From a virus (Duplodnaviria > Caudoviricetes): a stretch of DNA of 33,570 nucleotides. The translations under genes were made by a program, and so were the position numbers. The stretch lies in the IMG/VR virus record IMGVR_UViG_3300043447_000083, positions 1 through 33,570 of that record; one strand, 5' to 3'. The notes under the pieces are model-generated. The model did not search any database, was not told the DNA's origin, and saw only the letters and a program-made list of their open reading frames with translations. Positions 1 to 33,262 of the stretch are shown one piece after another; position 1 is the first letter of the stretch; each line of letters starts with the position of its first letter.

Positions 1-703
1 TTTCGCTATTCTTTAGCCATAAGAATGCTCTAGTAAATCTAGTATCGCTTAAAAAGCTACCTTGAAATGTTACTCCTAGACTCGAGGCAATCGCATCAAA
101 TAACTTACTAACTCTAATAGCAGGGAATAAATCATTATAATAAATAGGATGAGAATTTTGAGCAATGTTATAAGCTCCACTTCCATACTCCCAAACGTTT
201 TTAGAAGATATTAAAGGAAACATTACATTGTTACCAGCACCTCCGATAACTCGGTTTTTAACTACAGTTCCGGTATAGCTAAAATTATATGCACTAAGAT
301 TTAAGTCTTTTAGGAACTTACCTGCAAACGTATCCTTTAACGAAACTAAAGAACCAAAGAAAGTAATTTGGTAGTTATCTATTACCCCATTCTTATAGCT
401 AGCTTTCTCTAGTTGAATCTTACCTTTTCTAAATGGCGAATAGTCTAGCTCTATGTACGCATCTTTTCTTGTACGTGCATCAAATCCATTATCGATAGCA
501 TTCTCATACCAATGTTTAAATATCTTGTTATTATAAGGAGTAGCCGGAACCGTGAACGATTGGCTAAAGTCGGTAAAAACTTTAGATATGTCATTTACGT
601 TTTGAATGTTACTCGTTACGCTTATGCGTTCGTCATCGAAAAGCTCTATACGTTGTGGCTCTCCGGTAACATCGTCATAAATATAAAGTAAGACGTTTAT
701 CAT
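1..703 (-). CDS. Tail tip/hub-like virion protein, 5' part only (runs off window); diverged copy of 28434-30434
   Basis: ATG at 703 overlaps the upstream stop (TAATG). The frame is open to position 1 and the translation (...EPQRIELFDDERISVTSNIQNVNDISKVFTDFSQSF...) aligns with the 666-aa ORF. Not in the supplied ORF track. Confidence 0.8.
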   Translation of the reverse strand, partial: MINVLLYIYDDVTGEPQRIELFDDERISVTSNIQNVNDISKVFTDFSQSFTVPATPYNNKIFKHWYENAIDNGFDARTRKDAYIELDYSPFRKGKIQLEKASYKNGVIDNYQITFFGSLVSLKDTFAGKFLKDLNLSAYNFSYTGTVVKNRVIGGAGNNVMFPLISSKNVWEYGSGAYNIAQNSHPIYYNDLFPAIRVSKLFDAIASSLGVTFQGSFLSDTRFTRAFLWLKNSE

Positions 704-1779
704 TAGACTACGTTGTTAATAAGATTAAATCCGTAAGTAAACTCTATTTCGTAATTGATATTTCTATCTTTTAACGAGGTCTTTAAATCGGTAGCGGTAG
801 TCTTAACTTCTACCGGCACTCCATCTAAAAGAATCGTCTCGGATAGAAGTAAGTCTTGAATAAGCTCCGAGTAATTCTCTGGAACCCACCCCGTATTTAA
901 ACGGATATTTTTTGAGCCATTAATATTGAAGCTCTTTGTTTGTGCTCTTGAAGTATTATAATCTACTGCATCTGGAAGCAAGTTATATGTAGTCCCTTGC
1001 GTTTGAATGTTAGTTGTTTGTGCCTTATAAAACGTTAGAAATTGCCATCCTCCAAAACGATTGATATACTGGCATTGAATAGGGTTCCATTTAGGCTCGC
1101 AAATAGGCATTATTGTAAATATCCTAGAAGCGTCTACATATTCTCCAGTAGGTCTGTATTTTATTTCTACCGTATTGCCTTTGTCGAATTTTATAAAATC
1201 CGTTCTAAAAGGAATTTTTAACATTGTTTTGCCTAAATCCTCATAGGTAACTATTAATTCATTTCTGCCCCTTAAATCTTTGTATGAAACAATAACATCT
1301 GCAGGAGAAGTGATATCGGTAACTACGTTGATAAATGGGTAGGAATCTGAAATAATACCTTCCTCATAAGTATAAACTAAACCCTCTCTAACTAAAATAT
1401 TAAAATCTGGTTCGGTTTCTTCGGCACTATTCATACCGTTAGAATATAACGTATATCCTCCAGTAGCGTAACCAGTATCCGTATCTAATAAAATATAAGT
1501 ACCTAAAGTCGCTTCTTTATATCGCTTAACTTTTACGTTACACCACATTGAATTTGTATTATCACTTGGAGTAATAGCCTCAATATACTCCTTAACATAT
1601 GGAGCAATATTATAAACGTTCTTTCTATTGGTAGCTGAAGCAATAGACTTAGTAAAAGTATAGGTAGGAGTAGATGGTTCACTATCTGGATTATTCCAAA
1701 TAAACAATTCTACCCTAGAGCCAAGTTGCGAAGCTTCGTTTATTTCAATAAAGTAAGGACTTCTTGCGTAAATTATCAT
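703..1779 (-). CDS. Virion tail protein (distal-tail/Dit-like candidate), copy A
   Basis: 358 aa, beta-rich, in the tail module; homologue at 30434-31501. The Dit call rests on position and size only. Confidence 0.55.
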   Translation of the reverse strand: MIIYARSPYFIEINEASQLGSRVELFIWNNPDSEPSTPTYTFTKSIASATNRKNVYNIAPYVKEYIEAITPSDNTNSMWCNVKVKRYKEATLGTYILLDTDTGYATGGYTLYSNGMNSAEETEPDFNILVREGLVYTYEEGIISDSYPFINVVTDITSPADVIVSYKDLRGRNELIVTYEDLGKTMLKIPFRTDFIKFDKGNTVEIKYRPTGEYVDASRIFTIMPICEPKWNPIQCQYINRFGGWQFLTFYKAQTTNIQTQGTTYNLLPDAVDYNTSRAQTKSFNINGSKNIRLNTGWVPENYSELIQDLLLSETILLDGVPVEVKTTATDLKTSLKDRNINYEIEFTYGFNLINNVV

Positions 1780-2309
1780 TTTATCTTTAAATTATAATCT
1801 ATAATTGTATCAATATCTTGCCCAAAGGCTTTTAGTAAATCAATATCTATGTACTTAGAATATCCTTTCTCAAATGGCTTAGTAAAAAATAAACTTGGCT
1901 TTAATCCTTTTGCAAAAATGCTTCTAGTAATTATAAAAGCAGTTGATTGATAACTTAAAAACTTACCAGTATCCTTGTCTTTAAATTGTATTCTCTTTTG
2001 TTTAACCCACTTCTCAATGCCATTGGTTAAACCTCCAGACTTACCGCTTCCGCTGCCAAATTTAAAAGGACTATTAGGAGCTTTAGCGTTACTAAACTTA
2101 CCTCTAACCCCTTGGTCTTGGTAAGCTCCGTGTTCGTCCATTATAAAGCCTACAATAGAGTAATTTGCTTCGCTTACTATTTCTCCTTTAATACTATTGT
2201 AAAGTGATTTACTTACATTTTTCCCTTGCCTTGTTAAATTTGCTTTAGCTTGAGAAACTACATAATCTCTAAATCTCTTTATAGTAGCTTGAGTTTCTTT
2301 TAATTCCAT
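1776..2309 (-). CDS. Neck/tail-completion-like protein, copy A
   Basis: 177 aa, basic, with SLYNSIK...YQDQGVRG...GLKPSLFF, reminiscent of HK97 gp10-like tail completion proteins; homologue at 31498-32034. Confidence 0.5.
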   Translation of the reverse strand: MELKETQATIKRFRDYVVSQAKANLTRQGKNVSKSLYNSIKGEIVSEANYSIVGFIMDEHGAYQDQGVRGKFSNAKAPNSPFKFGSGSGKSGGLTNGIEKWVKQKRIQFKDKDTGKFLSYQSTAFIITRSIFAKGLKPSLFFTKPFEKGYSKYIDIDLLKAFGQDIDTIIDYNLKIK

Positions 2310-2765
2310 TTAGCAAATTGTCATATCATTAGGAATAATAACGTCAAACGTTAATGTCCATCCAGCTACCTTGTTCTCGAATCTATCCATAAATGGCTCA
2401 GCACTTGGAGCAGAAGCAATCTGGATTAAATTAGAAAATAATGTACCTCGCATTAAATCGCTAGTCAATCTTTGTGCTAAAGCTAACTGAGTATTTAAAA
2501 CGTCTTGCTCATTGTCATTACTATCCCAAATGTCTGTAACAAGTTGCTTACTATCGTCCACTAAATCCATAAATAATATGGAAATATTAAGGGACGTAGT
2601 ATTTTCGGCTAATTGTGCATTATTAACAATAATATGCGACAAAGGGAAAATTGTTTGTTTGTTTAAGTCTACCTTAAATATGTCTCCAATAGTTACCGTA
2701 TTAATAAAGTTGGTAGCTTTTAGGTAATCTTTAATCGCATTTACTACGTAATAATATCCGTTCAT
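2310..2765 (-). CDS. Tail terminator/completion-like protein, copy A
   Basis: 151 aa, acidic alpha/beta protein next to the neck gene; homologue at 32034-32489. Confidence 0.5.
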   Translation of the reverse strand: MNGYYYVVNAIKDYLKATNFINTVTIGDIFKVDLNKQTIFPLSHIIVNNAQLAENTTSLNISILFMDLVDDSKQLVTDIWDSNDNEQDVLNTQLALAQRLTSDLMRGTLFSNLIQIASAPSAEPFMDRFENKVAGWTLTFDVIIPNDMTIC

Positions 2766-3507
2766 TTGTTAGCCTTTTTAATTAACTTAATCTCTAAGTC
2801 CGCTTTTTGTTTTTCAAATACTAAATATGTCAAGCATTTCCGTAAAGGAAGTTTGGTAACTTCATCAAATCTTCTAACGTCTCCTTTAGCGAGAGCATAG
2901 ATTGATGAATACCATCCCCACCGCTTTCCGAATTGTGCTTGTTCATCAAATCCTTCATCTGCGGATTCTCCTCCAAATAAGTCAGGGTACTCCGAAGTAA
3001 TTCGTTCCCTAAATGATAAAAAAAAACCACCGCACCTAACACAACATCTAAAGGAGCGTGCCTCATTACATCCGCATAAGTTATAGAGCCATTATAATCC
3101 TCTATACTATATTTGTCTTGCACCTTGTTTTTAATGGGTCTAAATAAGACTGCCATCGCTTTGTGCATTTCTTGCCAATCGGTAATATATGTATCTAAAT
3201 CCATATACTCACCTTGTGTCATTTCATCCAAATTAGGTATGAACCCAAACTCTACTCCACCCATTTTAAAACGTGGTATAAATGGATGTTTAATTCCAAA
3301 CATTTTGGCAATAGATGCAGTAATTTCTTTTACATCTTTATGCTTAATATTTGCAATGTCTTTTAAATCAACACCGCAAAAGTATTGCACCATCTTTTGA
3401 TGCAAGAACTCTGAATCTTCATTACTCTCTGCAATCTTTAGAAATCTTTGGTATTGAGCCAATTTAATTTCTCCTAGATGCGTAGGAATATTTAATTCTA
3501 GCTTCAT
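2762..3507 (-). CDS. Predicted -1 frameshift product (GT-type tail assembly chaperone, ~248 aa), copy A
   Basis: Slippery GTT TTT TTT TAT (T9 at 3018-3026). The -1 frame reads FLSFRERITSEYPDLFGG...FGKRWGWYSSIYALAKGDVRRFDEV...KKANK and stops at 2762-2764, overlapping the next ATG (ATGA). Confidence 0.75.
2830..3507 (-). CDS. Tail assembly chaperone-like protein (G form, 225 aa), copy A
   Basis: ORF track; contains the slippery T9 run; homologue at 32554-33231. Confidence 0.65.
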   Translation of the reverse strand: MKLELNIPTHLGEIKLAQYQRFLKIAESNEDSEFLHQKMVQYFCGVDLKDIANIKHKDVKEITASIAKMFGIKHPFIPRFKMGGVEFGFIPNLDEMTQGEYMDLDTYITDWQEMHKAMAVLFRPIKNKVQDKYSIEDYNGSITYADVMRHAPLDVVLGAVVFFYHLGNELLRSTLTYLEENPQMKDLMNKHNSESGGDGIHQSMLSLKETLEDLMKLPNFLYGNA

Positions 3508-3511
3508 AATG

Positions 3512-3538
3512 TATAAACGTTATTTGTTGTTTTTTGTA
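3512..3538 (-). promoter_or_regulatory. Candidate ECF-type late promoter
   Basis: TACAAAA...AACGTTTATA (TAC-N16-CGT). The same motif occurs at 16676, 23248, 26302 and 33236, always intergenic and in front of late genes. Confidence 0.7.
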
Positions 3539-4750
3539 TTAGTACACGAAATACTTCCCCGAGTTGGGATTAGATAACTGATAGAAGACGTTGTAACGTA
3601 TGGCATCGATGGCGTGGTTAAAGTTATCGACCACAAGTCCAGACTTCTTGTCAGAGTATATGTAGTTATTAAGTTCTTTTCCAATGTTCTGAGAGTTAGG
3701 TTCTATTACTAATTCATAATCTTGCATAAGTGCTAGACCAGCGGTAATACTACCCGCTCCTTTTTCAGTAGGCACTATATTACATCCTTGCGATTGAAGC
3801 TCGGCTATAAGTCTTGGCTCTGCACTATCTGCTACTATCAAACTTTTACCGCATACTCGCTTGTTTATTTGTGCTATTTCGCTTGTAGTTAGCTTTGGTT
3901 TGTACAAATGCTCCTTAATATAAATTTTATGCTTATTCTTGTCTATCGCTACCTCTACTAGCGTAGTCGGGTCTATCGAGAATCCAAAGTCTTGACCAAA
4001 TGAGGTTTGTAAATTATCTGGATTAAATTGACCATAAGACCAATTAGTAAATACTACACCTTCGGCTTTGTCTAACCATCCTCCAAGAATCGTATGCTCG
4101 TACTTGCGTTTATTTGTACGTTCTAAGGCTTCGATTTGATTTAGGAATGATTCACTTAGGTAATCAATATTATCCTTGTACGTGGTATGTATGTAAGTCG
4201 TATCGCCCTTAGTTAATGATTCTCCAGATTGAACTCCTTTCTCTTCGAAAAAACGATTGTAAATAAAGTGTTCTTTTGTTGTTGGGTTTAAAATTAGGAT
4301 TACTCGGTTTTGTCTTTGGCTATTACGAATGGAGAAATCTATTTTATCAAAGATATCTTCATCTGTTAGCTCTTCCGCTTCATCTAATATCCAAGTCGTA
4401 ACACCTTGTAACGATTTAAGATTAGCGGTTTGAGTTCCGCTCGATGTCTTAATACCTCTAAATAAAATCTTTGAATTGGTACGAGTATTTATAATCTCGT
4501 CTTTGGTAATGTAGAAATCGGATTCTAATCCAGCCATCTCTATCTTCTCTACAAACTCTGGTATAATTGATATATGAGCCGAAGTTAGAGTATAACGAGT
4601 AAATAGTATTACGTGACCTACTTCGTACGTTAGAAGCAAAAGAAAGGAGTTCAAAGCAAATGATTTACCCGAACCCCTTCCTCCAGTTACAACAAAGTAC
4701 CGGCTTGCGCTTTCAAATAACGGTACATATTTTTTATTTAACTCTATCAC
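3539..4750 (-). CDS. terL: Terminase large subunit (PBSX-like)
   Basis: Walker A GGRGSGKS, Walker B WILDEAEE, motif III LNP, nuclease motifs QDFGF and NHAIDAIRY. Confidence 0.95.
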   Translation of the reverse strand: MIELNKKYVPLFESASRYFVVTGGRGSGKSFALNSFLLLLTYEVGHVILFTRYTLTSAHISIIPEFVEKIEMAGLESDFYITKDEIINTRTNSKILFRGIKTSSGTQTANLKSLQGVTTWILDEAEELTDEDIFDKIDFSIRNSQRQNRVILILNPTTKEHFIYNRFFEEKGVQSGESLTKGDTTYIHTTYKDNIDYLSESFLNQIEALERTNKRKYEHTILGGWLDKAEGVVFTNWSYGQFNPDNLQTSFGQDFGFSIDPTTLVEVAIDKNKHKIYIKEHLYKPKLTTSEIAQINKRVCGKSLIVADSAEPRLIAELQSQGCNIVPTEKGAGSITAGLALMQDYELVIEPNSQNIGKELNNYIYSDKKSGLVVDNFNHAIDAIRYNVFYQLSNPNSGKYFVY

Positions 4751-5443: not shown

Positions 5444-5864
5444 TGTCTTCTTCGAATACGTTATAAACTTGTCTAATTTGTCCAATATAATCTCTCCAAC
5501 ACGAAGCACAAGATGAAGCTTCTAATTTAATGTCAAAGATTCGGTAATATATATCTGTTAATTCCCATTGTACTTTCGGAGTAATGCTATTCTGAGGCTT
5601 AGAGAAAAACTCTTTTAAGTATTCATAATCCTCTTGAACTAAGCATTTAGGTTTACGATACGACCATAGCTTATTTAGCTTCTCTTTGCGTTCATCGCAT
5701 CCACAATCCCAGTCTAATGCTTTAGATAAAAGCTCTACACCTTTCTTAATTCCGGTAACGGTAGTGAATGCTTCAATAGTATCGCCCAATCCTTGAGCGT
5801 TAGCAAACGTAGCCTCCTCTTTAGGTTCTACGATAATTCTTTTTTTAATTGGTCTTTTTCCCAT
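5430..5864 (-). CDS. Cys-containing hypothetical protein
   Basis: 144 aa with GLGDTIE, DCGCDERKEKLN and SSCASC motifs; possibly metal-binding. Confidence 0.6.
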   Translation of the reverse strand: MGKRPIKKRIIVEPKEEATFANAQGLGDTIEAFTTVTGIKKGVELLSKALDWDCGCDERKEKLNKLWSYRKPKCLVQEDYEYLKEFFSKPQNSITPKVQWELTDIYYRIFDIKLEASSCASCWRDYIGQIRQVYNVFEEDNAGN

Positions 5865-6289
5865 TCTTTTAAACGTTGTTTACATTTCTTAATTGTGTTG
5901 TACACACTTGTAAAATTAATCTTAGTCTCTCTAGCTATTTTACGCATAGATATTTTATTATTTACCCAAAGCATAAATAGCATTTTATCGTACCAATGCC
6001 AAGTATCTATAAACTCTAAATAAGGCTGAGCTAGTTCCTCTGCTATGTCATTACTCTCATCCTCTCGTAAGCTATACTCTATGTCCCTTGTGATTTCTAC
6101 CTTAGTTACTTTCTTAGAGTGCAAGTCCATCGTAAGACTTCTTAGCGTGTAGTAGAAATAAGCCTCGTTTATCTCTTTGCCGTGAACTTTGATATAAGCC
6201 TCTTGAACTACGTCTTCGGCATAATTGACCTCGCCAAACTTTTTAACGATAGAAACCCAATGCTTATGCCTAGAATAAATATGCTCCAT
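5828..6289 (-). CDS. Phage RNA polymerase sigma factor, ECF-like
   Basis: Region-2-like AEDVVQEAYIK and region-4 HTH ISMRKIARETKINFTSVYNTIKKCKQRLK; 153 aa. Confidence 0.8.
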   Translation of the reverse strand: MEHIYSRHKHWVSIVKKFGEVNYAEDVVQEAYIKVHGKEINEAYFYYTLRSLTMDLHSKKVTKVEITRDIEYSLREDESNDIAEELAQPYLEFIDTWHWYDKMLFMLWVNNKISMRKIARETKINFTSVYNTIKKCKQRLKEWEKDQLKKELS

Positions 6290-6866: not shown

Positions 6867-6972
6867 TAGTCAGGACAGGATTCGAACCTGTAATTAGCTT
6901 TATCATACTGAGTGCCATTAGCTGTTATCTCAACCTTGGAGGGTGCTGCGTCTACCATTCCGCCACCTGACT
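6867..6972 (-). ncRNA. tRNA-like RNA with atypical, enlarged anticodon/variable region
   Basis: Acceptor stem AGTCAGG/CCTGACT, Leu-type D arm GCGGAATGGTAGACGC, T arm ACAGG-TTCGAAT-CCTGT. The 56-nt middle has no proper anticodon stem, and the 3' end reads ACAA. Confidence 0.75.
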
Positions 6973-8095: not shown

Positions 8096-8439
8096 AGCTT
8101 TGTTATTTCAAATTCTATTCTAGGATTCTCTTTGTCTATGAATTTATACATTAGCAAGCGATGGCATAGCCTATCATTTTCTATTACGTTACAATTTTGT
8201 AAACAATCAAGAATAATCTTTGCAGAATTGTCAAGGTCAGAGCGATTTGATTGAAAATAAACAAAAATTTCAATCGAAAATTTATCTTTAATAGGCTCGC
8301 TTGGTTTTCCTTTTGCTAAAGATAGTAACCATTTAAACTTATTCTCGTACTCTATCAGCTCTTTAGATTTATAAAGTCTATTATTAGCTATTTTATATCC
8401 ATTAGATTTACTTGGGACTTGTCCTTGAATTATTATCAT
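8092..8439 (-). CDS. rusA: RusA-like Holliday junction resolvase
   Basis: VPSKSN, DLDNSAKIILDCLQ, IENDR and NPRIEFEI motifs. Confidence 0.85.
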   Translation of the reverse strand: MIIIQGQVPSKSNGYKIANNRLYKSKELIEYENKFKWLLSLAKGKPSEPIKDKFSIEIFVYFQSNRSDLDNSAKIILDCLQNCNVIENDRLCHRLLMYKFIDKENPRIEFEITKL

Positions 8440-9101
8440 CAGAATAAAGTTAGCTGGTCTGTGTGTTGTTTAAATCGTTTTTCGCTTGCTTTAAAGTAAT
8501 CCTCATCTAATTCAAATCCAGTAAACTCAAAACCTAAATCGTAAGCGGCTATTCTAGAGCTTCCGCTACCTAAATGCGTATCTAGGATTTTATCCCCTTG
8601 TTTTGCGTAGTTAGTCAATATCCACTTATAAAGTTTGACTGGCTTTTGTGTTGGATGTATTCTATTCTCCTTGTTTTTCATATCTCCTTGAAGCATTCCA
8701 GACCACATAAATTTATACTTTCTTACCGCTGATTTAAAAGATGTCCAAGCAAGTTCGCAATCAGCAAAATCTGTTTCTCCGTTGTCTTTATCCCACACTA
8801 TCCAACAAGAAGAATCAAATGGAATTTTTGAAATAAAATGATTTGCCCCCCAAATTATTTGGTTTTTACTTATTCTTTTAAGTTCATTAAAGTATTCTAT
8901 TTCTGGAGAATTTTTATCATTTCCAGCAAATGCTTTATAATCTTTTGGTTTAGCTAAGCCTCCGGTTCTTGTTTTATTTTTTGAACCATCCTCCCCTATC
9001 CCGTAAGGTGGGTCTACAATTGCTAACTCAAAATAATTATCTGGGTATTGTTTCATACCTTCTATGCAATCCATGTTAAAAACTTCTGATTTTGCTTTCA
9101 T
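8439..9101 (-). CDS. DNA N4/N6 methyltransferase (beta-type order), orphan
   Basis: Catalytic DPPY precedes HPTQKP and SAM-binding DTHLGSGS. Confidence 0.9.
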   Translation of the reverse strand: MKAKSEVFNMDCIEGMKQYPDNYFELAIVDPPYGIGEDGSKNKTRTGGLAKPKDYKAFAGNDKNSPEIEYFNELKRISKNQIIWGANHFISKIPFDSSCWIVWDKDNGETDFADCELAWTSFKSAVRKYKFMWSGMLQGDMKNKENRIHPTQKPVKLYKWILTNYAKQGDKILDTHLGSGSSRIAAYDLGFEFTGFELDEDYFKASEKRFKQHTDQLTLF

Positions 9102-9862
9102 TATTCAATAGGTTTAATTTCTCCTTCTTCTGTAAGATATGCTTTAAAGTCTGCTAAGTTTTCTACAAACTCCTTATAACATTGAGCTTTACAAGCCATA
9201 ATAAGTTCATCCTTATCAACAAATTTGTTTACATTACTTGCGTAAATTCTTTGTTTATCCTCTAGGCTAGCCTCATATATGCCAAATTTTACGATGTAAT
9301 CGTATAGAACGTGTAAACCTCCAGCTATCCATTTCATTTTAATATTACGCTCGTGGCATCTAATCATTTCTTGAGAGTACATATTAGCCGAGTTAATCGC
9401 TGCCATCTTTAAATCTGCATCGCTTGGAATTTCTTTAGGTGCTTCTATCTCTTTTACTACCGTTATAGTCTCTTGTCTAGCGTAATCGATGTAAGCTTTC
9501 ATGATTCGACCAAAGTATTCACAAGAAAAGTTCTCATAGCATTTAGCATCGATTTCTAATTTACCACTTACCGCTAATTCAAAGGCTAGTTTTATCTCTT
9601 CTGGTGTTTGGTTTCCAAAATTTGAACGAATGAAATTTAGTAAGACAAACTTTTCTTCTTCGGTAGGCATATTATTTCCTCTAAGACCCACTAAAACCAT
9701 TGAATAGCGTAACACTTGCTTTAAGTCCTCTTCGTGTCTTAAACGTAAGCTTTGGGTACTCTGTGCTTGCAAGATGATATTAGCGGAAGCGTTACCAGTT
9801 TTTAATGGCTTCCATTCTTGCGGCAGATGTTCCAAGTTTTGGTTCGTTGTTTGAATTTCCAT
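9101..9862 (-). CDS. Putative replication accessory (helicase-loader-position) protein
   Basis: 253 aa directly after the initiator, overlapping it by 71 nt; function inferred from position only. Confidence 0.45.
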   Translation of the reverse strand: MEIQTTNQNLEHLPQEWKPLKTGNASANIILQAQSTQSLRLRHEEDLKQVLRYSMVLVGLRGNNMPTEEEKFVLLNFIRSNFGNQTPEEIKLAFELAVSGKLEIDAKCYENFSCEYFGRIMKAYIDYARQETITVVKEIEAPKEIPSDADLKMAAINSANMYSQEMIRCHERNIKMKWIAGGLHVLYDYIVKFGIYEASLEDKQRIYASNVNKFVDKDELIMACKAQCYKEFVENLADFKAYLTEEGEIKPIE

Positions 9863-10484
9863 TAGTATTAAATTTAGATTTGTTACTCATCCAGGTCTTT
9901 ACTCTTCTGCTAATATCGAAAAACTTTTCGCATTCCCATCGTTCTTTTCCCTTGCTATTTTTTTCTGTCCAATAGAAATAAAATTTTTCATATTCACCTT
10001 CTAACTCTTTAGAGTATGGGTGAAGCATTTCACCAAATGTTATCTTTACTTTACTTTCATTTACTTTACTTTCTTTTTCTTTACTTTCCTTTCCTTTACT
10101 TTGTTGAACGGTCGTTGAACGGTCGTTGAGCAATCGTTTCTCGGCTGATGCTTTGCCTGCCAATTTACGTTGTTCTTTCATCCTAAAATAAGGCTCTAAG
10201 TAAACTAGCATCTTAGGAGAAAAGAATTTTTGTTCTTCATCTATCTCAAATAACTGATAGTTGCATACTGCTACTCTTACCTTTGCTTCTGATACCCCAA
10301 ACTCTTCCGCTAAGAGGTCTAAATCCTCTAATGGGTACATTAAGTCTTGTTGTTCCCTTAATGTCTCTAATAGCATAAAATAAATGCCATAACCTTCTGT
10401 TCCAAGTTCTTTGCGTAACCGCCTAATTTTGCGGTCGTGCCTTGCATTACAAAAATGCGGGAAATAAAATGCTTCTTTTTCCAT
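9792..10484 (-). CDS. Putative replication initiator, Lin1244/Lin1753-like (DUF4373) N-terminus
   Basis: YFPHFCNARHDRKIRRLRKELGTEGYGIYFMLLETL; internal iterons and a low-complexity KESK linker. Confidence 0.7.
   Translation of the reverse strand: MEKEAFYFPHFCNARHDRKIRRLRKELGTEGYGIYFMLLETLREQQDLMYPLEDLDLLAEEFGVSEAKVRVAVCNYQLFEIDEEQKFFSPKMLVYLEPYFRMKEQRKLAGKASAEKRLLNDRSTTVQQSKGKESKEKESKVNESKVKITFGEMLHPYSKELEGEYEKFYFYWTEKNSKGKERWECEKFFDISRRVKTWMSNKSKFNTNGNSNNEPKLGTSAARMEAIKNW
10043..10138. repeat. Iteron-like repeats plus purine/pyrimidine tract (candidate origin)
   Basis: gttgaacggtc x2 plus gttgagcaatc (10103-10135), next to a tttact/tttc-rich tract (10043-10102), inside the initiator gene. 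Confidence 0.65.
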
Positions 10485-12084: not shown

Positions 12085-12600
12085 TCAGTCTTCTTTAGTT
12101 TGAATACAATTATAGATAAAATCAAAATGCCTTGTTTTGGTATCTAGTAATTCATTTGTATCGTACCTTCTATACATAAATCTTTCTCTATCATAAATAA
12201 TAAAACGATGAGCTTTCATATGTTCTTTTTTTGTTAGGTAAATAATATCTAGTAAATCTTCTTCATTGTAAGACCAGTGGTGTTTTTCTTGATTTTCAAT
12301 ACTTTTAATTTTCCAAGAAACATTTCTAGCTTTAGCTTTTTCTGGATATAGCAAGTTATAGTTTATAATTCTTTGTTTACTTGCTTTTCCAGTTCCTAAA
12401 TAAAGTCTACGATATTTATCTCTATTTCTTTTTCTTTCTAATTCGACATATTCAAAATCATTTCTTTTTTCAATTTGATTTATCTTTATGTCATTTTTAG
12501 CACAAGATTTACATTTATTTAAATGCCCATCTTTCATTTGATTGTGTGTATAAAAATTCGATAACTCCTTTTCAATACCACATTTAAAACATTTTTTCAT
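12085..12600 (-). CDS. Zn-finger/HNH-like endonuclease
   Basis: CxxC...CxxC N-terminus and HHWSY...LTKKEHMKAH; very AT-rich; has its own promoter. Confidence 0.65.
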   Translation of the reverse strand: MKKCFKCGIEKELSNFYTHNQMKDGHLNKCKSCAKNDIKINQIEKRNDFEYVELERKRNRDKYRRLYLGTGKASKQRIINYNLLYPEKAKARNVSWKIKSIENQEKHHWSYNEEDLLDIIYLTKKEHMKAHRFIIYDRERFMYRRYDTNELLDTKTRHFDFIYNCIQTKED

Positions 12601-12613
12601 ATATCTTTTTTTA

Positions 12614-12621
12614 CAAAGGTA
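12614..12621 (-). promoter_or_regulatory. Bacteroidota -7 promoter element
   Basis: TACCTTTG matches TAnnTTTG, 13 nt upstream of the ATG at 12600. Confidence 0.6.
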
Positions 12622-12929: not shown

Positions 12930-13481
12930 TTATGATAATTGAAGTTTACGTTTTGTTAATAAATTAAGTATGTCTTGGTTGCTACTCATTTTACTTTCGT
13001 TAGCAATGAATAGACTAGATAACTCGGATAATGATTTACAATCGTTAATAATAGATTCCCAATCTGTTTGACCATTTTTTTCTGGATATGATTTAGCAAC
13101 TTTTAAAGGTTGTGATATTGGAATAGAAGCATCCGTATCCTTGTCAGTTACTAAACCAAGCATCGAGCTTAAAGCATAACGTCTAAAATAAGTAACTCCC
13201 GACCCATAGCTTTGATATTCGTTCATAGCACCTAACTTTACTAAAGGTATCGGTGTATGGCTCTCGATTTGTTCTCCGCTCTCTACGTGGAAAAGAATAG
13301 TCCTAATGCCATCGTTCTCTAGTAGCTGAGTAAAGCAAAGTTTATGCTTTTTAAGTAGCGGATTAATCACGCTAAAGATTTGAGGTAAATCGGCATAAGT
13401 GTAGTTATGTCCTTTTGTGTCCTTGTGGATAATCGGGCATTCGTTTTGGAACTCCGATAGTGCTTTAATTAAATTTTTCAT
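12930..13481 (-). CDS. erf: ERF-family ssDNA annealing protein
   Basis: YTYADL...PLLKKHKL...GSGVTYFRRYALSSMLGL. Confidence 0.9.
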   Translation of the reverse strand: MKNLIKALSEFQNECPIIHKDTKGHNYTYADLPQIFSVINPLLKKHKLCFTQLLENDGIRTILFHVESGEQIESHTPIPLVKLGAMNEYQSYGSGVTYFRRYALSSMLGLVTDKDTDASIPISQPLKVAKSYPEKNGQTDWESIINDCKSLSELSSLFIANESKMSSNQDILNLLTKRKLQLS

Positions 13482-13626
13482 TTGAGATAATATTTACAAG
13501 TTTAGAATTTGATTTATGGCATTCATTAGATATAATATCTCTTGCTTGCCAAAGCTCTGGATTGTATGACCAAGTCATAGTATAAGTTCCGGACGAGTCT
13601 TGGAATTGTGCTTTTAAGATGCTCAT
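13465..13626 (-). CDS. 53-aa hypothetical protein
   Basis: MSILKAQFQDSSGTYTMTWSYNPELW...; tiles the gap. Confidence 0.5.
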   Translation of the reverse strand: MSILKAQFQDSSGTYTMTWSYNPELWQARDIISNECHKSNSKLVNIISNEKFN

Positions 13627-13630
13627 TGGT

Positions 13631-13741
13631 TTAGATGTTTTGAATAAAGTAAATGATATAAAATACTAGGTAAACGAACGTGGAGATTAGAATAGCCTCA
13701 GCTATATCGTTCTTGTCGATTTGTTTAAGATGCTCTCTCAT
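13631..13741 (-). CDS. 36-aa membrane peptide
   Basis: MREHLKQIDKNDIAEAILISTFVYLVFYIIYFIQNI. Confidence 0.5.
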   Translation of the reverse strand: MREHLKQIDKNDIAEAILISTFVYLVFYIIYFIQNI

Positions 13742-13760
13742 TTTGTAAGATTTTAAAGGT

Positions 13761-14021
13761 TTAAAATAAATTAGTATATCTTGATTCGTATTTTTTCTCT
13801 ATACTCTTCCAGTATGCTCTACCTTCTTTTGTATTATCAATAGTAATACAAGAAGAAATAACACACGTACTTGAGCAAGTTAATTGGTCGAAGTCTTTTT
13901 TGATTTGCTTAATACTTCTTCCAAATTGCTTTTGCTCTTTAGCATAATAAGATAAAATAATTTGATATAAATCTTTATCGTATCTGCTAATAGTCATCAA
14001 CATTGATAGGGGATATTTCAT
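13761..14021 (-). CDS. First early gene, hypothetical protein
   Basis: 86 aa with a TKEGRAYW motif, directly downstream of a consensus promoter. Confidence 0.65.
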   Translation of the reverse strand: MKYPLSMLMTISRYDKDLYQIILSYYAKEQKQFGRSIKQIKKDFDQLTCSSTCVISSCITIDNTKEGRAYWKSIEKKYESRYTNLF

Positions 14022-14060
14022 TTTGATTGTGTTTAGAATTGTTTTGCCTTATTGACACTT

Positions 14061-14068
14061 CAAAGATA
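14061..14068 (-). promoter_or_regulatory. Early promoter, Bacteroidota -7 element
   Basis: TATCTTTG matches TAnnTTTG, with a very AT-rich upstream region. Confidence 0.7.
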
Positions 14069-14124
14069 CGACTATATTTTAAATAAAAAAATCTTTTTTA
14101 AATTTTTTATTAATTATTTCTTTG

Positions 14125-14160
14125 AAACAAAAATGCCCCTAGATAATATCTAAGGGCATT
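14125..14160 (-). terminator. Intrinsic terminator ending the late region
   Basis: AATGCCCTTAGATA-T-TATCTAGGGGCATT followed by TTTGTTT. Confidence 0.8.
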
Positions 14161-14207
14161 CAATAAACAATTCTAAACCTATAAAAACTCTATTATGAAA
14201 ACAAATC
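14125..14207 (-). ncRNA. Candidate antisense small RNA (ends approximate)
   Basis: Bounded by TAGATTTG (14211-14218) and a terminator; carries a 14-nt perfect complement of the 14021 gene leader. Confidence 0.5.
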
Positions 14208-14215
14208 CTACAAAT

Positions 14216-15208
14216 CTAAACTATTTTTCCGTCTTTAATCATAATATTAGAGACTTTTGTTTTGCCTTCTACTATATCTACTAAAGCGAATCCTTGATTG
14301 TGCTGTGCAAAAGGATAGTATTTAGGGGATAACTGGGTTAAGCAACCTGTACTATACGTATGATAGAACTCCTTAAAACCATTCTTTTTAATAGTGCTAG
14401 TGGTTCTATGCACGTGACCTATAATCGTGTTACAAAACGTCTTGTTAAATGTGCTTTGTGATGGGTTCATTCCTCCCGCCATTATCTCGTGTCCGTGAAG
14501 TATGAGTAAATCTCCTAGCTCTATCCCTTGCCAATCGGGTACGTAAGTAATAGCTAGCTTATCTAGTCTAAAGAATTGCTCAAATTGCATCTCGTGTAAC
14601 TGGGCAAATTCTTCGGCTTGTTCGTTAAGGTATCTTTGCCAGCGATTCTCATGGTTACCCATTTTGTAGTATATAGGAATTAATGGGAATATGTCTCTTA
14701 TCTTTTGTAAGAAGTTTCGCCCCATCTCAATCTCTCTAGCAAAGTCACGTAAATCCTTTTCCTTTTCGTGTCTTGATATAGCGTAGAAGTCAAAAACATC
14801 GCCATTAAGAATGAGGCAATCTATTGCTTGCTCTCTTAGATGCTTAATAGCACAAGTTAAAGCCTCTAAAGAGTGATAAGGCACGTGTATATCTGATAGA
14901 ATACCCACCTTTTTAAAGTCTTCTGTAATACGAAAGCTAGTATATTCTTTGCCTAAGCTCTCTTCGATTCCAAAGTTATCAACCTCGTCTAGGTTAAAGG
15001 ATTCTATCTTGGCACTTGGTCTAGTTTGTTTCCAATATTCCGACCTTTTCTTAACTGAAATACCCATTCTAGTAAGTGCCTTGTGTAAATTTATTACGTC
15101 CTTGTATCCGTAGTTCTCCCAATTCTCACGCTCAAAGTCCGCTCTAGTCATATTAGTAGAATAGAAATGGTCTTTGATTGTCTTAGCTAATTCGCTATTT
15201 GATTGCAT
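14216..15208 (-). CDS. Calcineurin-like metallophosphoesterase
   Basis: DIH, GDVFD, GNHE, HGH and GHVH motifs. Confidence 0.9.
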   Translation of the reverse strand: MQSNSELAKTIKDHFYSTNMTRADFERENWENYGYKDVINLHKALTRMGISVKKRSEYWKQTRPSAKIESFNLDEVDNFGIEESLGKEYTSFRITEDFKKVGILSDIHVPYHSLEALTCAIKHLREQAIDCLILNGDVFDFYAISRHEKEKDLRDFAREIEMGRNFLQKIRDIFPLIPIYYKMGNHENRWQRYLNEQAEEFAQLHEMQFEQFFRLDKLAITYVPDWQGIELGDLLILHGHEIMAGGMNPSQSTFNKTFCNTIIGHVHRTTSTIKKNGFKEFYHTYSTGCLTQLSPKYYPFAQHNQGFALVDIVEGKTKVSNIMIKDGKIV

Positions 15209-16675: not shown

Positions 16676-16702
16676 TATAAACGTAATTTACTAAATTTTG
16701 TT
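16676..16702 (-). promoter_or_regulatory. Candidate ECF-type late promoter
   Basis: AACAAAA...TACGTTTATA (AAC-N16-CGT). Confidence 0.7.
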
Positions 16703-23247: not shown

Positions 23248-23274
23248 TATAAACGTTATTTTATACGTTTTGTT
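23248..23274 (-). promoter_or_regulatory. Candidate ECF-type late promoter
   Basis: AACAAAA...AACGTTTATA (AAC-N16-CGT), 5 nt from the ATG. Confidence 0.7.
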
Positions 23275-26301: not shown

Positions 26302-26327
26302 TATAAACGTTTATATTTATTTTTGTT
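26302..26327 (-). promoter_or_regulatory. Candidate ECF-type late promoter
   Basis: AACAAAA...AACGTTTATA (AAC-N15-CGT), 4 nt from the ATG. Confidence 0.7.
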
Positions 26328-28437: not shown

Positions 28438-30434
28438 ATTGTTCTAAAATCGGTTAGTAATTCAAATTGAACCTCACCACTTGTTAAATCGGTAGTAAAT
28501 TGATTAATAGTATAACGCTTATCTCTTATAATTACCCTATCATTTACTTTTAAATTAGTTAATAGGCTAATTGGTAACATAGCTTTCACCTTCATAATCC
28601 TAGACTTTATGCCAAAAATATTATTAAGGTAATTAGAATAGTAATTATTAAATAATGATTGATTCTCTACGTTACCTGTGTATGTAGATTGTTCAGCTCC
28701 GAAGTTTAACGTATAATCTACTGAACTTATTGAAGTATCTTGTCCAAAGATATTAGCTAAAGTTTGTGTAGTCGTAGAAGTTCCATCGTTAAATTTATAA
28801 GATGATACAGTCTGAGTAGAGCCAAAATCGTAAAGAATAACTGGTTTAGGAATATAAGGTATAAAACTAGGCTTTAAAGAATATCCTACTTGTAAATTAG
28901 TCCCACTAAATTTATTATGAAGCATTGTTTCAAATGGCAATTCTACACTATATTCTTCTCCGTCGTTATTAAGTTCATAGTATAAATCACCATAAGGAAC
29001 TTTTGAACGTGACATAAATTCAACGTTTAAAAAAGAATCAGCTTGTTGATATTTAAAGTTTACTTTCTTATAAGCTTTTGAGCGTTCAATATCAAATACA
29101 TCGTTTATAATATATTGAGTTATATCTCGTGTAGTTCCATTTGCATACCATCCCTCTAATTGTTCTATTTTATAAATTCCTAGAGTATCAGAATAGCACG
29201 TTAAATTAAATATCTTTAAAATACCACTAAAAAATTCTTCAATGGTCATCTCTGGCATATACTGAGAAATACTCATTGTAGTAGTGGTAGTCTGCGTAGT
29301 ACTTTGAGTTACCGTTAAATCGGTCATTTTAGTATATGTAGAACCTACCGTTTTACCAGTCTCATAGTAATAAACTGAAGTAAAAGAAATAGCAGCTGTA
29401 GAGGCAATATAAAAAGTATAAGACCCAGATTCTCCTAAAGGTACTTCTAAATACATTGGTGAAGTTTGAGTTAAATAACTTTGTGTATTAACTACAACCC
29501 CATCTTTATAAACATAAAAGAAAAACTCTTGTGCATTTTGTCCAATACTAGGAACGCTAAAACTAATAGTAATATGTGATTGAGATAAATACTCAGGACT
29601 TGTAGGCTTTGTATAAGTAAGCGTATCACTATATATATTGAAAATACCTTGCGTTCCGGTAGTTGAAGTATTTGTTTGAAAGTTTAGCTTATTAGCTACG
29701 GTTTTCAATTCAAATAAATCACTATTTTTTAACCATAAGAATGCTCTAGTAAATCTTGAATCACTTAGGAAATCACCTTGAAAAGTTACTCCAAGAGTCG
29801 AGGCAATAGCATCAAAAACTTTCTTAATTCTTATAGCTGGGAATAAATCATTATAATATATTGGTGTAGCACTATTAGAGATGTCCCAATTATTAGTCGT
29901 TACTCCTCCTCCTCCATATTGCCATACATTCTTTGAAGAAATTAATGGAAACATAACGTCATTACCCGCACCTCCAATAACTCTATTTTTAACTACGTTA
30001 CCAGTATAGGTAAAATTTAAAGTTGATAAGTCTAAGTCCTTAAGAAATTTACCTCCAAACGAATCTTTTAAAGATACTAAAGCACCAAAGAAAGTAATTT
30101 GATAATTATCTATTTGCCCATTCTTATAACTTGCTTTCTCAAGTTGAACTTTACCTTTACGAAATGGAGAATAATCTAACTCTATGAACGCATCCTTTCT
30201 CGTTCTAGCATCGAATCCATTATCTACCGAGTTCTCATACCAATGCTTGAAAATTCGGTTGTTATATGGAGTTGCCGGAATAGTAAAAGACTGGCTAAAA
30301 TCCGTAAAGACTTTAGATATATCGTTTACATTTTGAACGCTTGATGTAACGCTAATAGTTTCATCCGAAAAGAGTTCTATTCTTTGAGGCTCACCACTAG
30401 CATCGTCATAAATATAAAGAAGTACGTTAATCAT
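28434..30434 (-). CDS. Tail tip/hub-like virion protein
   Basis: 666 aa, beta-rich (FSQSFTIPAT..NN.IF), with a Thr/Ser-rich central domain, in the tail module. Confidence 0.65.
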   Translation of the reverse strand: MINVLLYIYDDASGEPQRIELFSDETISVTSSVQNVNDISKVFTDFSQSFTIPATPYNNRIFKHWYENSVDNGFDARTRKDAFIELDYSPFRKGKVQLEKASYKNGQIDNYQITFFGALVSLKDSFGGKFLKDLDLSTLNFTYTGNVVKNRVIGGAGNDVMFPLISSKNVWQYGGGGVTTNNWDISNSATPIYYNDLFPAIRIKKVFDAIASTLGVTFQGDFLSDSRFTRAFLWLKNSDLFELKTVANKLNFQTNTSTTGTQGIFNIYSDTLTYTKPTSPEYLSQSHITISFSVPSIGQNAQEFFFYVYKDGVVVNTQSYLTQTSPMYLEVPLGESGSYTFYIASTAAISFTSVYYYETGKTVGSTYTKMTDLTVTQSTTQTTTTTMSISQYMPEMTIEEFFSGILKIFNLTCYSDTLGIYKIEQLEGWYANGTTRDITQYIINDVFDIERSKAYKKVNFKYQQADSFLNVEFMSRSKVPYGDLYYELNNDGEEYSVELPFETMLHNKFSGTNLQVGYSLKPSFIPYIPKPVILYDFGSTQTVSSYKFNDGTSTTTQTLANIFGQDTSISSVDYTLNFGAEQSTYTGNVENQSLFNNYYSNYLNNIFGIKSRIMKVKAMLPISLLTNLKVNDRVIIRDKRYTINQFTTDLTSGEVQFELLTDFRTI

Positions 30435-31501
30435 TAAACTACATTATTAATAAGTGAGAAAGCATAATCAAACGTAATTTCGTAATTAATGTTTCTATCC
30501 TTTAGGCTAGTCTTTAAATCGGTAGCCGTAGTTTTTACTTCCACCGGCACTCCATCTAAAAGAATCGTCTCGGCAAGAAGTAAGTCTTGAATCAATTCAT
30601 TATAATTCTCTGGAATCCAACCCGTGTTTAATCGGATGCTTTGGTTTCCGTTAATATTGAAAGATTTTGTTTCCGCTCTATTTACGTTGTAATCTACCGC
30701 ATCAGGTAATAGCTTAAACGTAGTTCCAATCGTTTGAATGCTATTCGTTTGTGCCTTAAAGAATGTCAAGAATTGCCATCCACCAAAACGATTAATAAAC
30801 TGGCATACGATAGGATTATACTTAGGCTCACAAATAGGCATAATGTTGATAGTAACGCTTTTGTCTATATATTCTCCGGTAGGCTTCCAATTAATGGTAC
30901 AAGTGTTACCCTTATCGTACTTAATTGAAGACGTTCTTAATGGCACTTTGTAAAGCTTCGCTCCATCTCTTGTGATAGTGTTTACAACCTCGTTACGACC
31001 TCTCAAATCTTTGTATGATATGGTAAGCGTAGCCGGGCTAGAATTATTTGCCCAAACATTAACGTAAGGATAGTCCGTAATTCCCTCCTCGTAGCGATAC
31101 TCTAGGCTAGTGTTTGCTAATACAAAAATATCGGCGGTAGAGCCTGATTGATTGTAACCACCCGAGTAGTTAGTATATCCTCCGGTTGAATAATAAGTAG
31201 TAGTGTCTAGTAAAGTATATGTGCCTAGAGTAGCCTCTTTGTATCGCTTAACTTCTACTAGCGCAAGCATTGAGTCTGTATTGTCGCTAGGTGTAATCGC
31301 CTCAATATATTCCTTTACGTAAGGCGCAATATTGTAGACATTCTTTCTATTTGTTGTAGAAGCAATAGATTTAGTAAAAGTATAGGTAGGGTTAGTCGGC
31401 TTAGTATCTGGATTATTCCAAATATGAAGCTCAATCTTTGAGCCTAACTGACTTGTCTCGTTTACCTCAATAAAGTAAGGACTTCTAGCGTAGATTATCA
31501 T
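30434..31501 (-). CDS. Virion tail protein (Dit-like candidate), copy B
   Basis: 355 aa; homologue of 703-1779. Confidence 0.55.
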   Translation of the reverse strand: MIIYARSPYFIEVNETSQLGSKIELHIWNNPDTKPTNPTYTFTKSIASTTNRKNVYNIAPYVKEYIEAITPSDNTDSMLALVEVKRYKEATLGTYTLLDTTTYYSTGGYTNYSGGYNQSGSTADIFVLANTSLEYRYEEGITDYPYVNVWANNSSPATLTISYKDLRGRNEVVNTITRDGAKLYKVPLRTSSIKYDKGNTCTINWKPTGEYIDKSVTINIMPICEPKYNPIVCQFINRFGGWQFLTFFKAQTNSIQTIGTTFKLLPDAVDYNVNRAETKSFNINGNQSIRLNTGWIPENYNELIQDLLLAETILLDGVPVEVKTTATDLKTSLKDRNINYEITFDYAFSLINNVV

Positions 31502-32034
31502 TTTCTATTTTCTAATTTATAACTAACAAGCGTGTCTATATCCGCTTTAAATGCTTTAATCAATTCCTTGCCTAAATACCTATCCTTTGCAACCTCAAAA
31601 GGTTTAGTAAAGAATAAGCTAGGTCGTATTCCGGTTTGGTAAATACTTCTAGTAATAATAAAAGCCGTAGATTGATAGCTCAAAAACTTACCGCTCTTTT
31701 TATCTCTAAATTGTATTCCTTTTTGTCTAACCCACTTGTCTATGCCTTCGGTTAATCCTCCCTTTCTGCCTTTACCACTACCAAATTTAAACGGACTATT
31801 AGGAGCTTTTGCACTCTTCGATTTACCTCTAACCCCTTGGTCTTGGTAAGCCCCATAGTCTTCCATAAAGAAGTTAATTAAGGAGTAGTTATCTTCCTTT
31901 AATACTTCGCTACTAATGCTATTGTAAAGCTTGCTAGAGACGTTCTTTCCGCCCTTAGTTAGGTTACTTCGTGATTGTTGAATAACGTAGCTCCTAAACT
32001 TTTTAATTAAATCGTCTACGTTCTTTAATTCCAT
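31498..32034 (-). CDS. Neck/tail-completion-like protein, copy B
   Basis: Homologue of 1776-2309; start MELK at 32034 (TAATG overlap). Confidence 0.5.
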   Translation of the reverse strand: MELKNVDDLIKKFRSYVIQQSRSNLTKGGKNVSSKLYNSISSEVLKEDNYSLINFFMEDYGAYQDQGVRGKSKSAKAPNSPFKFGSGKGRKGGLTEGIDKWVRQKGIQFRDKKSGKFLSYQSTAFIITRSIYQTGIRPSLFFTKPFEVAKDRYLGKELIKAFKADIDTLVSYKLENRK

Positions 32035-32489
32035 TAGCAAATAGTCATATCGTTTGGAGTTATAACGTCAAACGTTAATGTCCATCCAGCCACTTTGTTT
32101 TCAAATCTATCGGTAAACGGTTCCGCATTCGGTGCCGATTCGACTTGCACTAGATTAGTAAATAATGAGCCTCTCATTAAGTCGGAACTTAATTTAGAAG
32201 CTAAAGCTAGCTGCGTGTTTAAAACATCTTGTTCATTATCATTCCCTACCCATACATCGGTTACCGATTCCTTGCTCTCGTCCACTATATCCATGAATAG
32301 AATCGAGATATTTAAAGACGTAGTATTCTCCCCTAGTTGAGCATTGTTTATAATGATATGAGACAAAGGAAAAATCGTTTGTTTGTTCAAGTCCACTTTA
32401 AAGATATCCCCAATAGTTACCGTATTAATAAAATCGGTATTTTTTAGGTAATCCTTTATCGTATTTACTACGTAATAATATCCGTTCAT
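32034..32489 (-). CDS. Tail terminator/completion-like protein, copy B
   Basis: Homologue of 2310-2765. Confidence 0.5.
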   Translation of the reverse strand: MNGYYYVVNTIKDYLKNTDFINTVTIGDIFKVDLNKQTIFPLSHIIINNAQLGENTTSLNISILFMDIVDESKESVTDVWVGNDNEQDVLNTQLALASKLSSDLMRGSLFTNLVQVESAPNAEPFTDRFENKVAGWTLTFDVITPNDMTIC

Positions 32490-33231
32490 TATTTTTGATT
32501 TTTAATCATTCTCATTTCTAAATTATTCTTTTGCTTTTCAAAGGTTAAGAACATTAAGCATTGATGTAGGGTAAGTTTTGAAATTTCATCAAATCTTCTA
32601 ACATCTCCTTGAGAGAGAGCATAGAGAGAGCTATACCATCCCCACCTTTTTCCAAATTGTGCTTGTTCACTATATCCGTTATCTTCGGATTCTCCTCCAA
32701 ATAGGTCAGCGTACTTTTCAACAATTCGTTGCCTAAATGATAAAAAAAAACCATCGCTCCTAAAACTACATCAAGTGGTGCGTGTTTCATAACATCCGCA
32801 TAAGTTAGAGAACCTTTGTACTCCTCTATCGTGTATCTATCTCCCATCTTATTAGTAATCGGTCTAAATAACACCGCCATAGCTTTGTGCATCTCGTCCC
32901 AATCGGTAATATAGGTGTCTAAATCAACATACTCGCCTTGAGTCATATCGTCTAGGTTAGGAATAAATCCGAACTCCGCTCCCCCTAATTTAAAGCGTGG
33001 AATAAACTTATGATTTGTATTAAATAACGTACCTAAATTGCTAGTAATTTCATTTACGTCCTTACGTTTAATACTTGCTACGTCCTTCAAATCAATTCCA
33101 CAAAATATCTGCACCATCTTTTGATGCAAAAACTCGCTTTCTTCATTTTCCTTAGCAATCTTTAGAAATTTTTGATATTGAGATAGCTTAATTTCTTTGA
33201 GTTGCGTAGGAATATTTAATTCTAGCTTCAT
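32489..33231 (-). CDS. Predicted -1 frameshift product (~247 aa), copy B
   Basis: T9 at 32742-32750. The -1 frame FLSFRQRIVEKYADLFGG...FGKRWGWYSSLYALSQGDVRRFDEI...IKNQK stops at a TAATG overlap. Confidence 0.75.
32554..33231 (-). CDS. Tail assembly chaperone-like protein (G form), copy B
   Basis: Homologue of 2830-3507. Confidence 0.65.
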   Translation of the reverse strand: MKLELNIPTQLKEIKLSQYQKFLKIAKENEESEFLHQKMVQIFCGIDLKDVASIKRKDVNEITSNLGTLFNTNHKFIPRFKLGGAEFGFIPNLDDMTQGEYVDLDTYITDWDEMHKAMAVLFRPITNKMGDRYTIEEYKGSLTYADVMKHAPLDVVLGAMVFFYHLGNELLKSTLTYLEENPKITDIVNKHNLEKGGDGIALSMLSLKEMLEDLMKFQNLPYINA

Positions 33232-33235
33232 AATG

Positions 33236-33262
33236 TATAAACGTTATTTGTTGTTTTTTGTA
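33236..33262 (-). promoter_or_regulatory. Candidate ECF-type late promoter (identical to 3512-3538)
   Basis: The intergenic sequence is unchanged between copies although the flanking codons differ. Confidence 0.7.

Follow-up and report, generated by a model that had tools for sequence, protein, structure and literature searches.

What is the function of the gene-free stretch that separates the late genes from the early genes in this phage? The window, the whole virus record of 33,570 nt, carries its main genes all on the minus strand. Matches to PHROGs were found for terminase, portal, tail, endolysin and metallophosphoesterase, the last late gene, and, 3' of the latter, for the early genes encoding Erf, a replication initiator, a methyltransferase and RusA. 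Among the 52 window proteins, PHROGs detected no integrase, CI or antirepressor, nor did Pfam among the 30 smaller ones; the remark of the first-pass annotation that the genome has no recognisable CI-type repressor held among these proteins. To our knowledge, early-gene shut-off in phages without a repressor or a polymerase of their own is little understood, and regulation in phages of Bacteroidota, hosts without Shine-Dalgarno pairing, is scarcely described. Judged by their sequence, the promoter boxes and the A-rich leaders of the window are of the Bacteroidota type. Our analysis indicates that the stretch quite probably produces a trans-acting RNA of about 60-80 nt, which would block ribosome loading on chosen early genes of the phage itself.

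Anatomy and predicted promoter of the unit

The stretch is a gene-free box-seed-terminator element that likely encodes a small RNA. Its parts and its neighbours are as follows.

14216..15208, minus strand: metallophosphoesterase gene, the final gene of the lysis operon (phrog_221)
14211..14218, minus strand: -7-type box TAGATTTG, overlapping the phosphoesterase stop codon, with the predicted RNA start at ~14206 (sequence; start spacing from PMC6847099)
14125..14206, minus strand: predicted 82-nt RNA with a weakly folded 5' half followed by the terminator hairpin (folding prediction)
14195..14201, minus strand: anti-start-codon box UUUUCAU, pairing with AUGAAAA and, via G.U, also with AUGAGAG and AUGGAAA (sequence)
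14165..14185, minus strand: anti-leader seed UUUAUAGGUUUAGAAUUGUUU (complementarity; cognate versus non-cognate tests)
14125..14161, minus strand: intrinsic terminator common to the unit and the late lysis operon (sequence; covariation in 24 loci)
14061..14068, minus strand: -7 box TATCTTTG of the early promoter, with the predicted start at ~14056 (sequence)
16676..16701, minus strand: predicted late promoter ACAAAA-N-ACGTTTATA, upstream of the lysis operon that ends at the unit terminator (sequence motif)
3512-3537, 16676-16701, 23248-23273, 26302-26326 and 33236-33261, minus strand: copies of the late-promoter-like motif (before five late gene starts)
5828..6289, minus strand: gene resembling ECF-type sigma factors, last in the early region (weak NCBIfam sigma matches below cut-off; Atlas neighbours with Sigma70_r2)

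The positions of the box, terminator, seed, leader match and erf leader in the first-pass annotation were all correct; absent from it was the point that the TAG within TAGATTTG is the stop codon of the metallophosphoesterase gene. The terminator stem (14131-14161) consisted of 14 pairs followed by a U tract, and the anti-AUG box and the seed were both located in the predicted unfolded half of the RNA. With Rfam, no C4 or CI match reached the gathering score over the window or an E value of up to 10 in 13400-14500, and the unit region gave sub-threshold matches only (trpB, 27.7 of 59 bits).

The RNA would be produced from its own weak promoter, read by the host sigma factor. The promoters of Flavobacterium johnsoniae are described in PMC6847099 as TAHHTTTG, with G almost never at -10/-9. 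Measured against this F. johnsoniae consensus, the window box fitted TAnnTTTG and, having a G, missed the refined TAHHTTTG. The G at -10/-9 occurred in 50 of 64 unit boxes compared with 8 of 85 early boxes, which counts against a strong promoter. A reading in which the box is not a working promoter and no separate small RNA exists, so that the seed serves solely as 3' UTR of the late lysis mRNA, or in cis in transcripts that read through, draws on this disfavoured G, on the over-use of TAG at the box (63 of 100, against 139 TAG and 548 TAA at other stops) and on the late promoter at 16676-16701, which leads into the unit terminator. We regard it as unlikely, since the box was conserved far beyond the stop codon: of 100 stop-anchored units, 74 had TAnnTTTG beginning at the stop, compared with 16 of 702 other TAA/TAG stops. 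The box was also retained with the unit behind inserted HNH genes; where the unit followed unrelated last genes, the box stood apart from the stop in 12 of 15 cases, 7 of them fully TAHHTTTG, and cultured phage 11b has a TATATTTG box. Such a reading would moreover alter the timing and not the antisense mechanism. The first-pass description of the unit as self-contained is therefore apt in that the box is conserved and travels with the unit, and too strong in that the window box fits TAHHTTTG poorly and the predicted late lysis mRNA has the unit as its 3' end.

Since the late promoter heads the lysis operon that ends at the unit terminator, late transcription is predicted to produce the seed as well, within a 3' UTR. 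Late in infection, the RNA would thus arise as the 3' end of the lysis mRNA as well, driven by the ECF-like sigma factor of the phage, and the gene at 5828-6289 likely encodes the reader of the late promoters. The motif ACAAAA-N-ACGTTTATA had five matches in the window, each before a late gene, and none in 100 shuffles. Among 70 relatives, only 9 had the exact pattern upstream, which points to a lineage-specific or diverged motif.

Some further features of the record were observed. A second host-type promoter, TACCTTTG, was located at 12614-12621 (minus strand), with very AT-rich sequence upstream, before the endonuclease gene 12085-12600. A tRNA-shaped element at 6867-6972 (minus strand) showed normal acceptor, D and T arms and an enlarged, odd anticodon region; the Rfam tRNA model scored it at 42.7 bits, and ARAGORN made no call. 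The same genes were repeated in 1-3846 and 29700-33570 at only ~77% nucleotide identity, so that the record looks like a genome of ~29.7 kb joined to part of a diverged relative, and its assembly may be chimeric.

Complementarity to early leaders in the window

Complementarity to the unit was found at the following start regions.

14031..14044, minus strand: target 1, first early gene (13761-14021), with 14 perfect pairs in its leader at -23 to -10 (helix score)
13757..13767, minus strand: target 2, 36-aa hydrophobic ORF (13631-13741), with 11 pairs in its leader; its family is conserved as a target (helix score, family test)
13628..13640, minus strand: weak target, leader of a 53-aa ORF (13465-13626), not conserved as a target (8 contiguous pairs)
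13475..13509, minus strand: target 3, leader of erf (ssDNA-annealing, PF04404), 17 pairs at 13493-13509 plus AUGAAAA at 13475-13481 (duplex ranking)
9856..9880, minus strand: target 4, start region of a 253-aa gene (9101-9862) adjoining the replication initiator; a conserved target family (family test)
9091..9116, minus strand: possible target 5, methyltransferase gene (8439-9101), at its start region (similar sites in the related loci L008, L048 and L119)

All 14 positions of GTTTAGAATTGTTT (14165-14178) paired with AAACAATTCTAAAC (14031-14044), which lies 10-23 nt before the ATG at 14021. The first-pass annotation had also proposed pairing at the erf leader, which was borne out by the 17 contiguous pairs and by UUUUCAU covering AUGAAAA, and pairing before the 13626 ORF, where a bulged match with 8 contiguous pairs was indeed present and the ORF family proved not to be a conserved target. 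It lacked the leader of the 36-aa ORF and the two targets in the replication region. A single 14-mer match is unexceptional by itself, because another perfect one lies at 1699-1712 on the non-transcribed strand. The two best contiguous helices of the entire minus strand both lay at early leaders, that of erf with 17 pairs and that of the first early gene with 14. When 46 start regions were ordered by the contiguous-helix score, the first four early genes had leaders in places 1, 2, 3 and 6; this score uses Turner-2004 stacking values, ignores bulges and accessibility and serves for ranks only. Dinucleotide shuffles reached the best start-region score of the window in 25 of 2000 cases and its top-three sum in 10 of 2000 (same 46 start regions). 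The erf start region also formed the best duplex among 56 start regions.

Conservation and seed-leader covariation in related phages

Relatives were collected from three IMG/VR scans, and 115 units were parsed, 88 of them non-redundant. Left out were contig ends (L010, L057, L070, L011, L054, L073), a locus of other arrangement in which no unit was recognised (L056), loci with a distant phosphoesterase and no unit behind it (L125, L128, L137, L186-L195), repeats of the contigs of L088 and L091 (L158, L176), a locus with a repeat after the stop (L182) and one in which HNH follows (L185); the L122-L146 group was judged by eye only. Each parsed unit had a box, a G/U-rich seed and a terminator, with TCAT in 110 of 115 and RNAs of ~57-82 nt or slightly more. 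In the consensus structure of 24 aligned loci, the terminator alone folded, with compensatory changes in 10 of its 12 pairs. A TAnnTTT[GA] box preceded the first early leader in 85 of 88 units.

HNH genes were inserted ~100 nt after the phosphoesterase stop and ahead of the unit in L005, L009, L011, L024, L069, L079 and L090. They had a conserved folded leader with CTGCAAC...GTTGCAG and GGCTCA...TGAGCC arms, ending at the ATG; a second type of HNH leader was seen in L076, L078 and L185. In L005 and L009, the anti-AUG box was separated from the seed by an inserted small hairpin with a GCCGAAAGGC tetraloop, which fits a flexible spacer between two pairing modules. Two tandem units with one terminator each were observed in a distant group (L122, L123, L127, L134-L137, L140-L143, L146), and both appeared complementary to AAACCAA-type leaders.

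Read on the plus strand, the unit resembles an early-type leader followed by ATGAAAACA, so it could be the leader and start of a small opposite-strand gene (14195-14284, 29 aa) whose complementarity to the early leaders is incidental. This is scarcely credible, as a reverse TAnnTTTG promoter was present in 1 of 88 units, hairpins with a reverse U tract stood in the way in 50 of 88, and no PHROG was matched. The peptide was rejected as a candidate; over 110 units, the ORF was 3 to 48 aa long and fell in each of the three frames.

The seeds differed by lineage together with the leaders, forming the classes GTTTAGATG/CATCTAAAC, GTTGTTG/CAACAAC, GTGGTTTAGAA/TTCTAAACCAC, GTATAGTTGTT/AACAACTATAC and TTGATAAGGTTTA/TAAACCTTATCAA. 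Over 72 units, the pairing with the own first early leader was -10.5 kcal/mol compared with -6.6 kcal/mol for the leaders of others, a difference reached in 0 of 20,000 permutations. Since relatedness inflates this result, de-replicated sets were drawn; with 24-30, 12-18 and 7-9 units, at most 0, 0 and 7 of 5000 permutations did as well. At the own first leader, 60 of the 72 units beat at least 95 of 100 shuffles and 12 failed to do so, L025 clearly. Many cognate helices consisted of only 7-10 A/U-rich pairs.

Because the first leader is closely linked to the unit, distant genes were tested by protein family. The leader of the ssDNA-annealing gene covaried with the seed (n=63, median 690 nt away, 0 of 5000 permutations; de-replicated median 15 of 2000), as did those of the 36-aa peptide (n=34, 0 of 5000; 1 of 2000), an 88-aa family (n=47, 0 of 5000; 26.5 of 2000) and the 253-aa gene (n=41, 3.6 kb away, 0 of 5000; 2.5 of 2000). 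The de-replicated tests of distant targets were weaker, with worst draws of 175, 48 and 197 of 2000. The median distances of these leaders from the unit were 0.4-3.6 kb, and targets up to 3.6 kb away argue against pairing in cis. No covariation was found in the families of the SSB-like gene, the initiator and two others, nor in that of the 13626 ORF (684 of 5000 permutations). Late leaders (n=287) equalled shuffles (-3.48 versus -3.41 for shuffled; 1716 of 5000 permutations).

The anti-AUG box also tracked its target. It formed 7 of 7 pairs with the start of the ssDNA-annealing gene in 56 of 60 units (0 of 5000 permutations), and of the 15 units with GATTCAT, 11 had an early gene that starts with ATGAATC, compared with 0 of the 73 other units; this switch is probably a single evolutionary event. 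The first-pass annotation had suggested shuffled controls and a search for seed/target covariation as checks. In both, the results were in its favour, since the matches of the window and of the relatives exceeded those of shuffled sequences, and the seeds and their own early leaders changed together. Its claim that the RNA silences several early genes was strengthened by the shuffles, the homologous loci and the covariation, except for the 13626 ORF. As in trans-acting anti-start-site sRNAs in general, complementarity to start regions was maintained by covariation.

A perfect 14-bp inverted repeat flanks the early promoter, so the element could instead work at the DNA level, as an inverted operator or a recombination repeat, for example with an invertible early promoter between the 14-bp arms. 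The test for RNA-level pairing did not favour RNA, with 43 G.U observed against 51 expected and 26 A.C against 24.5 expected, and given this flat result, the case for RNA over DNA rests on the anatomy, which appears to be that of a terminated, unfolded reverse complement of a leader plus AUG, tracking separate targets. An element of DNA is very unlikely in that the unit is the reverse complement of the whole start region, leader and AUG, with both parts following their targets; the arms are short, imperfect or bulged in many relatives, and no invertase or integrase was found. The invertible promoter was rejected; the leader had its normal orientation in 110 of 115 units, 4 of the other 5 end within 70 nt, and no inverted promoter segment was seen in any parsed locus.

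Proposed mechanism, known RNAs and range

In Bacteroidota, an A-rich enhancer zone at -14 to -11 takes the place of the Shine-Dalgarno sequence. In the mechanism that we favour, the RNA would pair in vivo and in trans over the early leaders and start codons and block ribosome loading, the seed covering the enhancer zone and the second box the AUG. A-12 and A-13 are reported to stimulate initiation in F. johnsoniae, and the pairing with target 1 at -23 to -10 includes both. As the RNA accumulates, it would turn off early functions in recombination and replication, standing in for an early-gene repressor in a phage that apparently does not integrate. Integrase was found in 0 of 42 related virus records and was also absent from 11b and P12024S, so early-gene shut-off in a lytic or carrier cycle is likelier than lysogeny. 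Among records of other groups reached by pattern, 2 of 6 had an integrase, and small HTH proteins were encoded in 7 of the 42 related records.

Among known RNAs, P4 CI RNA is a phage RNA acting in trans on phage mRNA, and C4 is characterized by two-box pairing and processing. The comparison with C4 and CI in the first-pass annotation was valid for a phage RNA acting in trans and fitted less well where it suggests lysogeny, given the lack of an integrase in the window and in the 42 related records. C4 of P1/P7 is described in PMC8198154 as acting in trans on phage mRNA with short complementary boxes that set specificity, as proposed for the unit, and as directed at one icd-ant operon, backing up a protein repressor in lysogeny. 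The unit differs from C4 and CI in addressing several separate early leaders and in having no antirepressor, repressor, integrase, folded body or Rfam match. P22 sar, lambda OOP and aQ, as presented in PMC12197685, are likewise antisense RNAs of phages, which influence development by blocking translation of a phage mRNA or making it less stable; each is encoded opposite a single target, whereas the unit precedes its targets on their own strand and is one-to-many.

FopS/GibS of Bacteroides thetaiotaomicron (RF04319) is a closer anatomical match than C4/CI. According to the accounts in PMC11697453 and PMC7366714, these RNAs resemble the predicted RNA of the unit in the 65-70-nt size class, a single-stranded 5' seed, a 3' intrinsic terminator and pairing with several targets at start regions without a Shine-Dalgarno sequence; their promoter is of the sigma-ABfr type, of which the window box shows TAnnTTTG and misses TAHHTTTG. 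Pairing of this kind is described there for GibS and FopS as repressing translation in Bacteroides; one FopS is derived from a 3' UTR, and a FopS sequence was noted in a phage. By the same accounts, FopS/GibS is a host-encoded, RbpB-bound multicopy family with a conserved seed directed at glycan-transporter (susC-type) mRNAs, whereas the unit is a single phage copy with a lineage-specific seed that co-evolves with its own early leaders, and its predicted targets are phage genes. The FopS covariance model (RF04319, 56-bit cut-off) was passed in 0 of 5 genomes; its best match in the window (12.3 bits) lay outside the unit, and the units of two relatives scored 19.2 and 23.8 bits. These weak hits, and the same 5' module in host sRNAs (Rfam BTnc231 begins GUUUUUUUCAUAG), are consistent with a generic FopS-like anti-start-site RNA acting mainly against host mRNAs, such as those of receptors or defence genes, with self-matches secondary. 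Such an RNA is highly improbable here, as the match of the seeds to the phage's own leaders holds for particular gene families and is missing in others; host-targeting and self-targeting roles could coexist.

With early-gene repression by the phage's own RNA as the preferred reading, the unit offers a concrete one-to-many RNA mechanism, for which the natural matched seed/leader pairs serve as ready-made compensatory mutants and Flavobacterium phage 11b as a cultured carrier. If right, it could yield small orthogonal translation repressors for Bacteroidota. Tentatively, and with rather less confidence than in the repression itself, these phages may represent a widespread class in Bacteroidota in which one small RNA replaces the protein repressor as master switch of the early regulon. 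Each lineage would then have its private tag in chosen early leaders and the matching seed in the RNA, and such seed-tag pairs would define immunity groups at the RNA level, setting the time of early shut-off and keeping out related superinfecting phages. No publication describing such a unit came up in a search of the open literature. In PMC10690425, neither two seed strings nor two contig ids occurred in the 6 supplementary files searched; the terminator may be listed as a candidate RNA elsewhere in its supplement (files 1, 2 and 4).

In phage 11b, the genes are arranged in the same order and the unit is present, with its TATATTTG box at 30326. Its seed matched its own first early leader over 10 nt (11 of 1000 shuffles; top three, 40 of 1000), and its best single seed match was not significant (150 of 1000). 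Of its 11 AAACCAAA sites, 6 precede annotated starts and 3 more precede unannotated ATGs. Some seed matches in 11b precede host-promoter genes among the structural genes; small genes there with host-type promoters carry the early-gene leader tag (L197, at 11242, 11642, 11885, 20433 and 28717). P12024S, the nearest phage by capsid protein and of the same gene order, is without the unit. A blastn search of the region against cultured phages gave no nucleotide relative. The GTDB scan found 11 loci and no integrated copy; a weak hint of the host comes from a single contig of 2.8 kb in a Sediminibacterium MAG.

A gene-blind pattern scan of IMG/VR found a terminator after 25 of 120 sampled matches compared with 26 of 600 random positions. 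With an estimated 4100 matching stretches in IMG/VR, this suggests that the unit is common. An early leader adjoined 9 of the 25 terminator-ended matches, 8 of them distinct (12 of 10,000 permutations), and at least 2 of the 9 lie on contigs used above; the flanks of the other 16 held no early leader. In other phage groups, the same UUUUCAUAG-seed-terminator anatomy with no adjoining early leader was also seen in L215, L221, L260, L270 and L304, and in L218, L233, L236 and L272; two of these leader-less UUUUCAUAG-type records encode an integrase.
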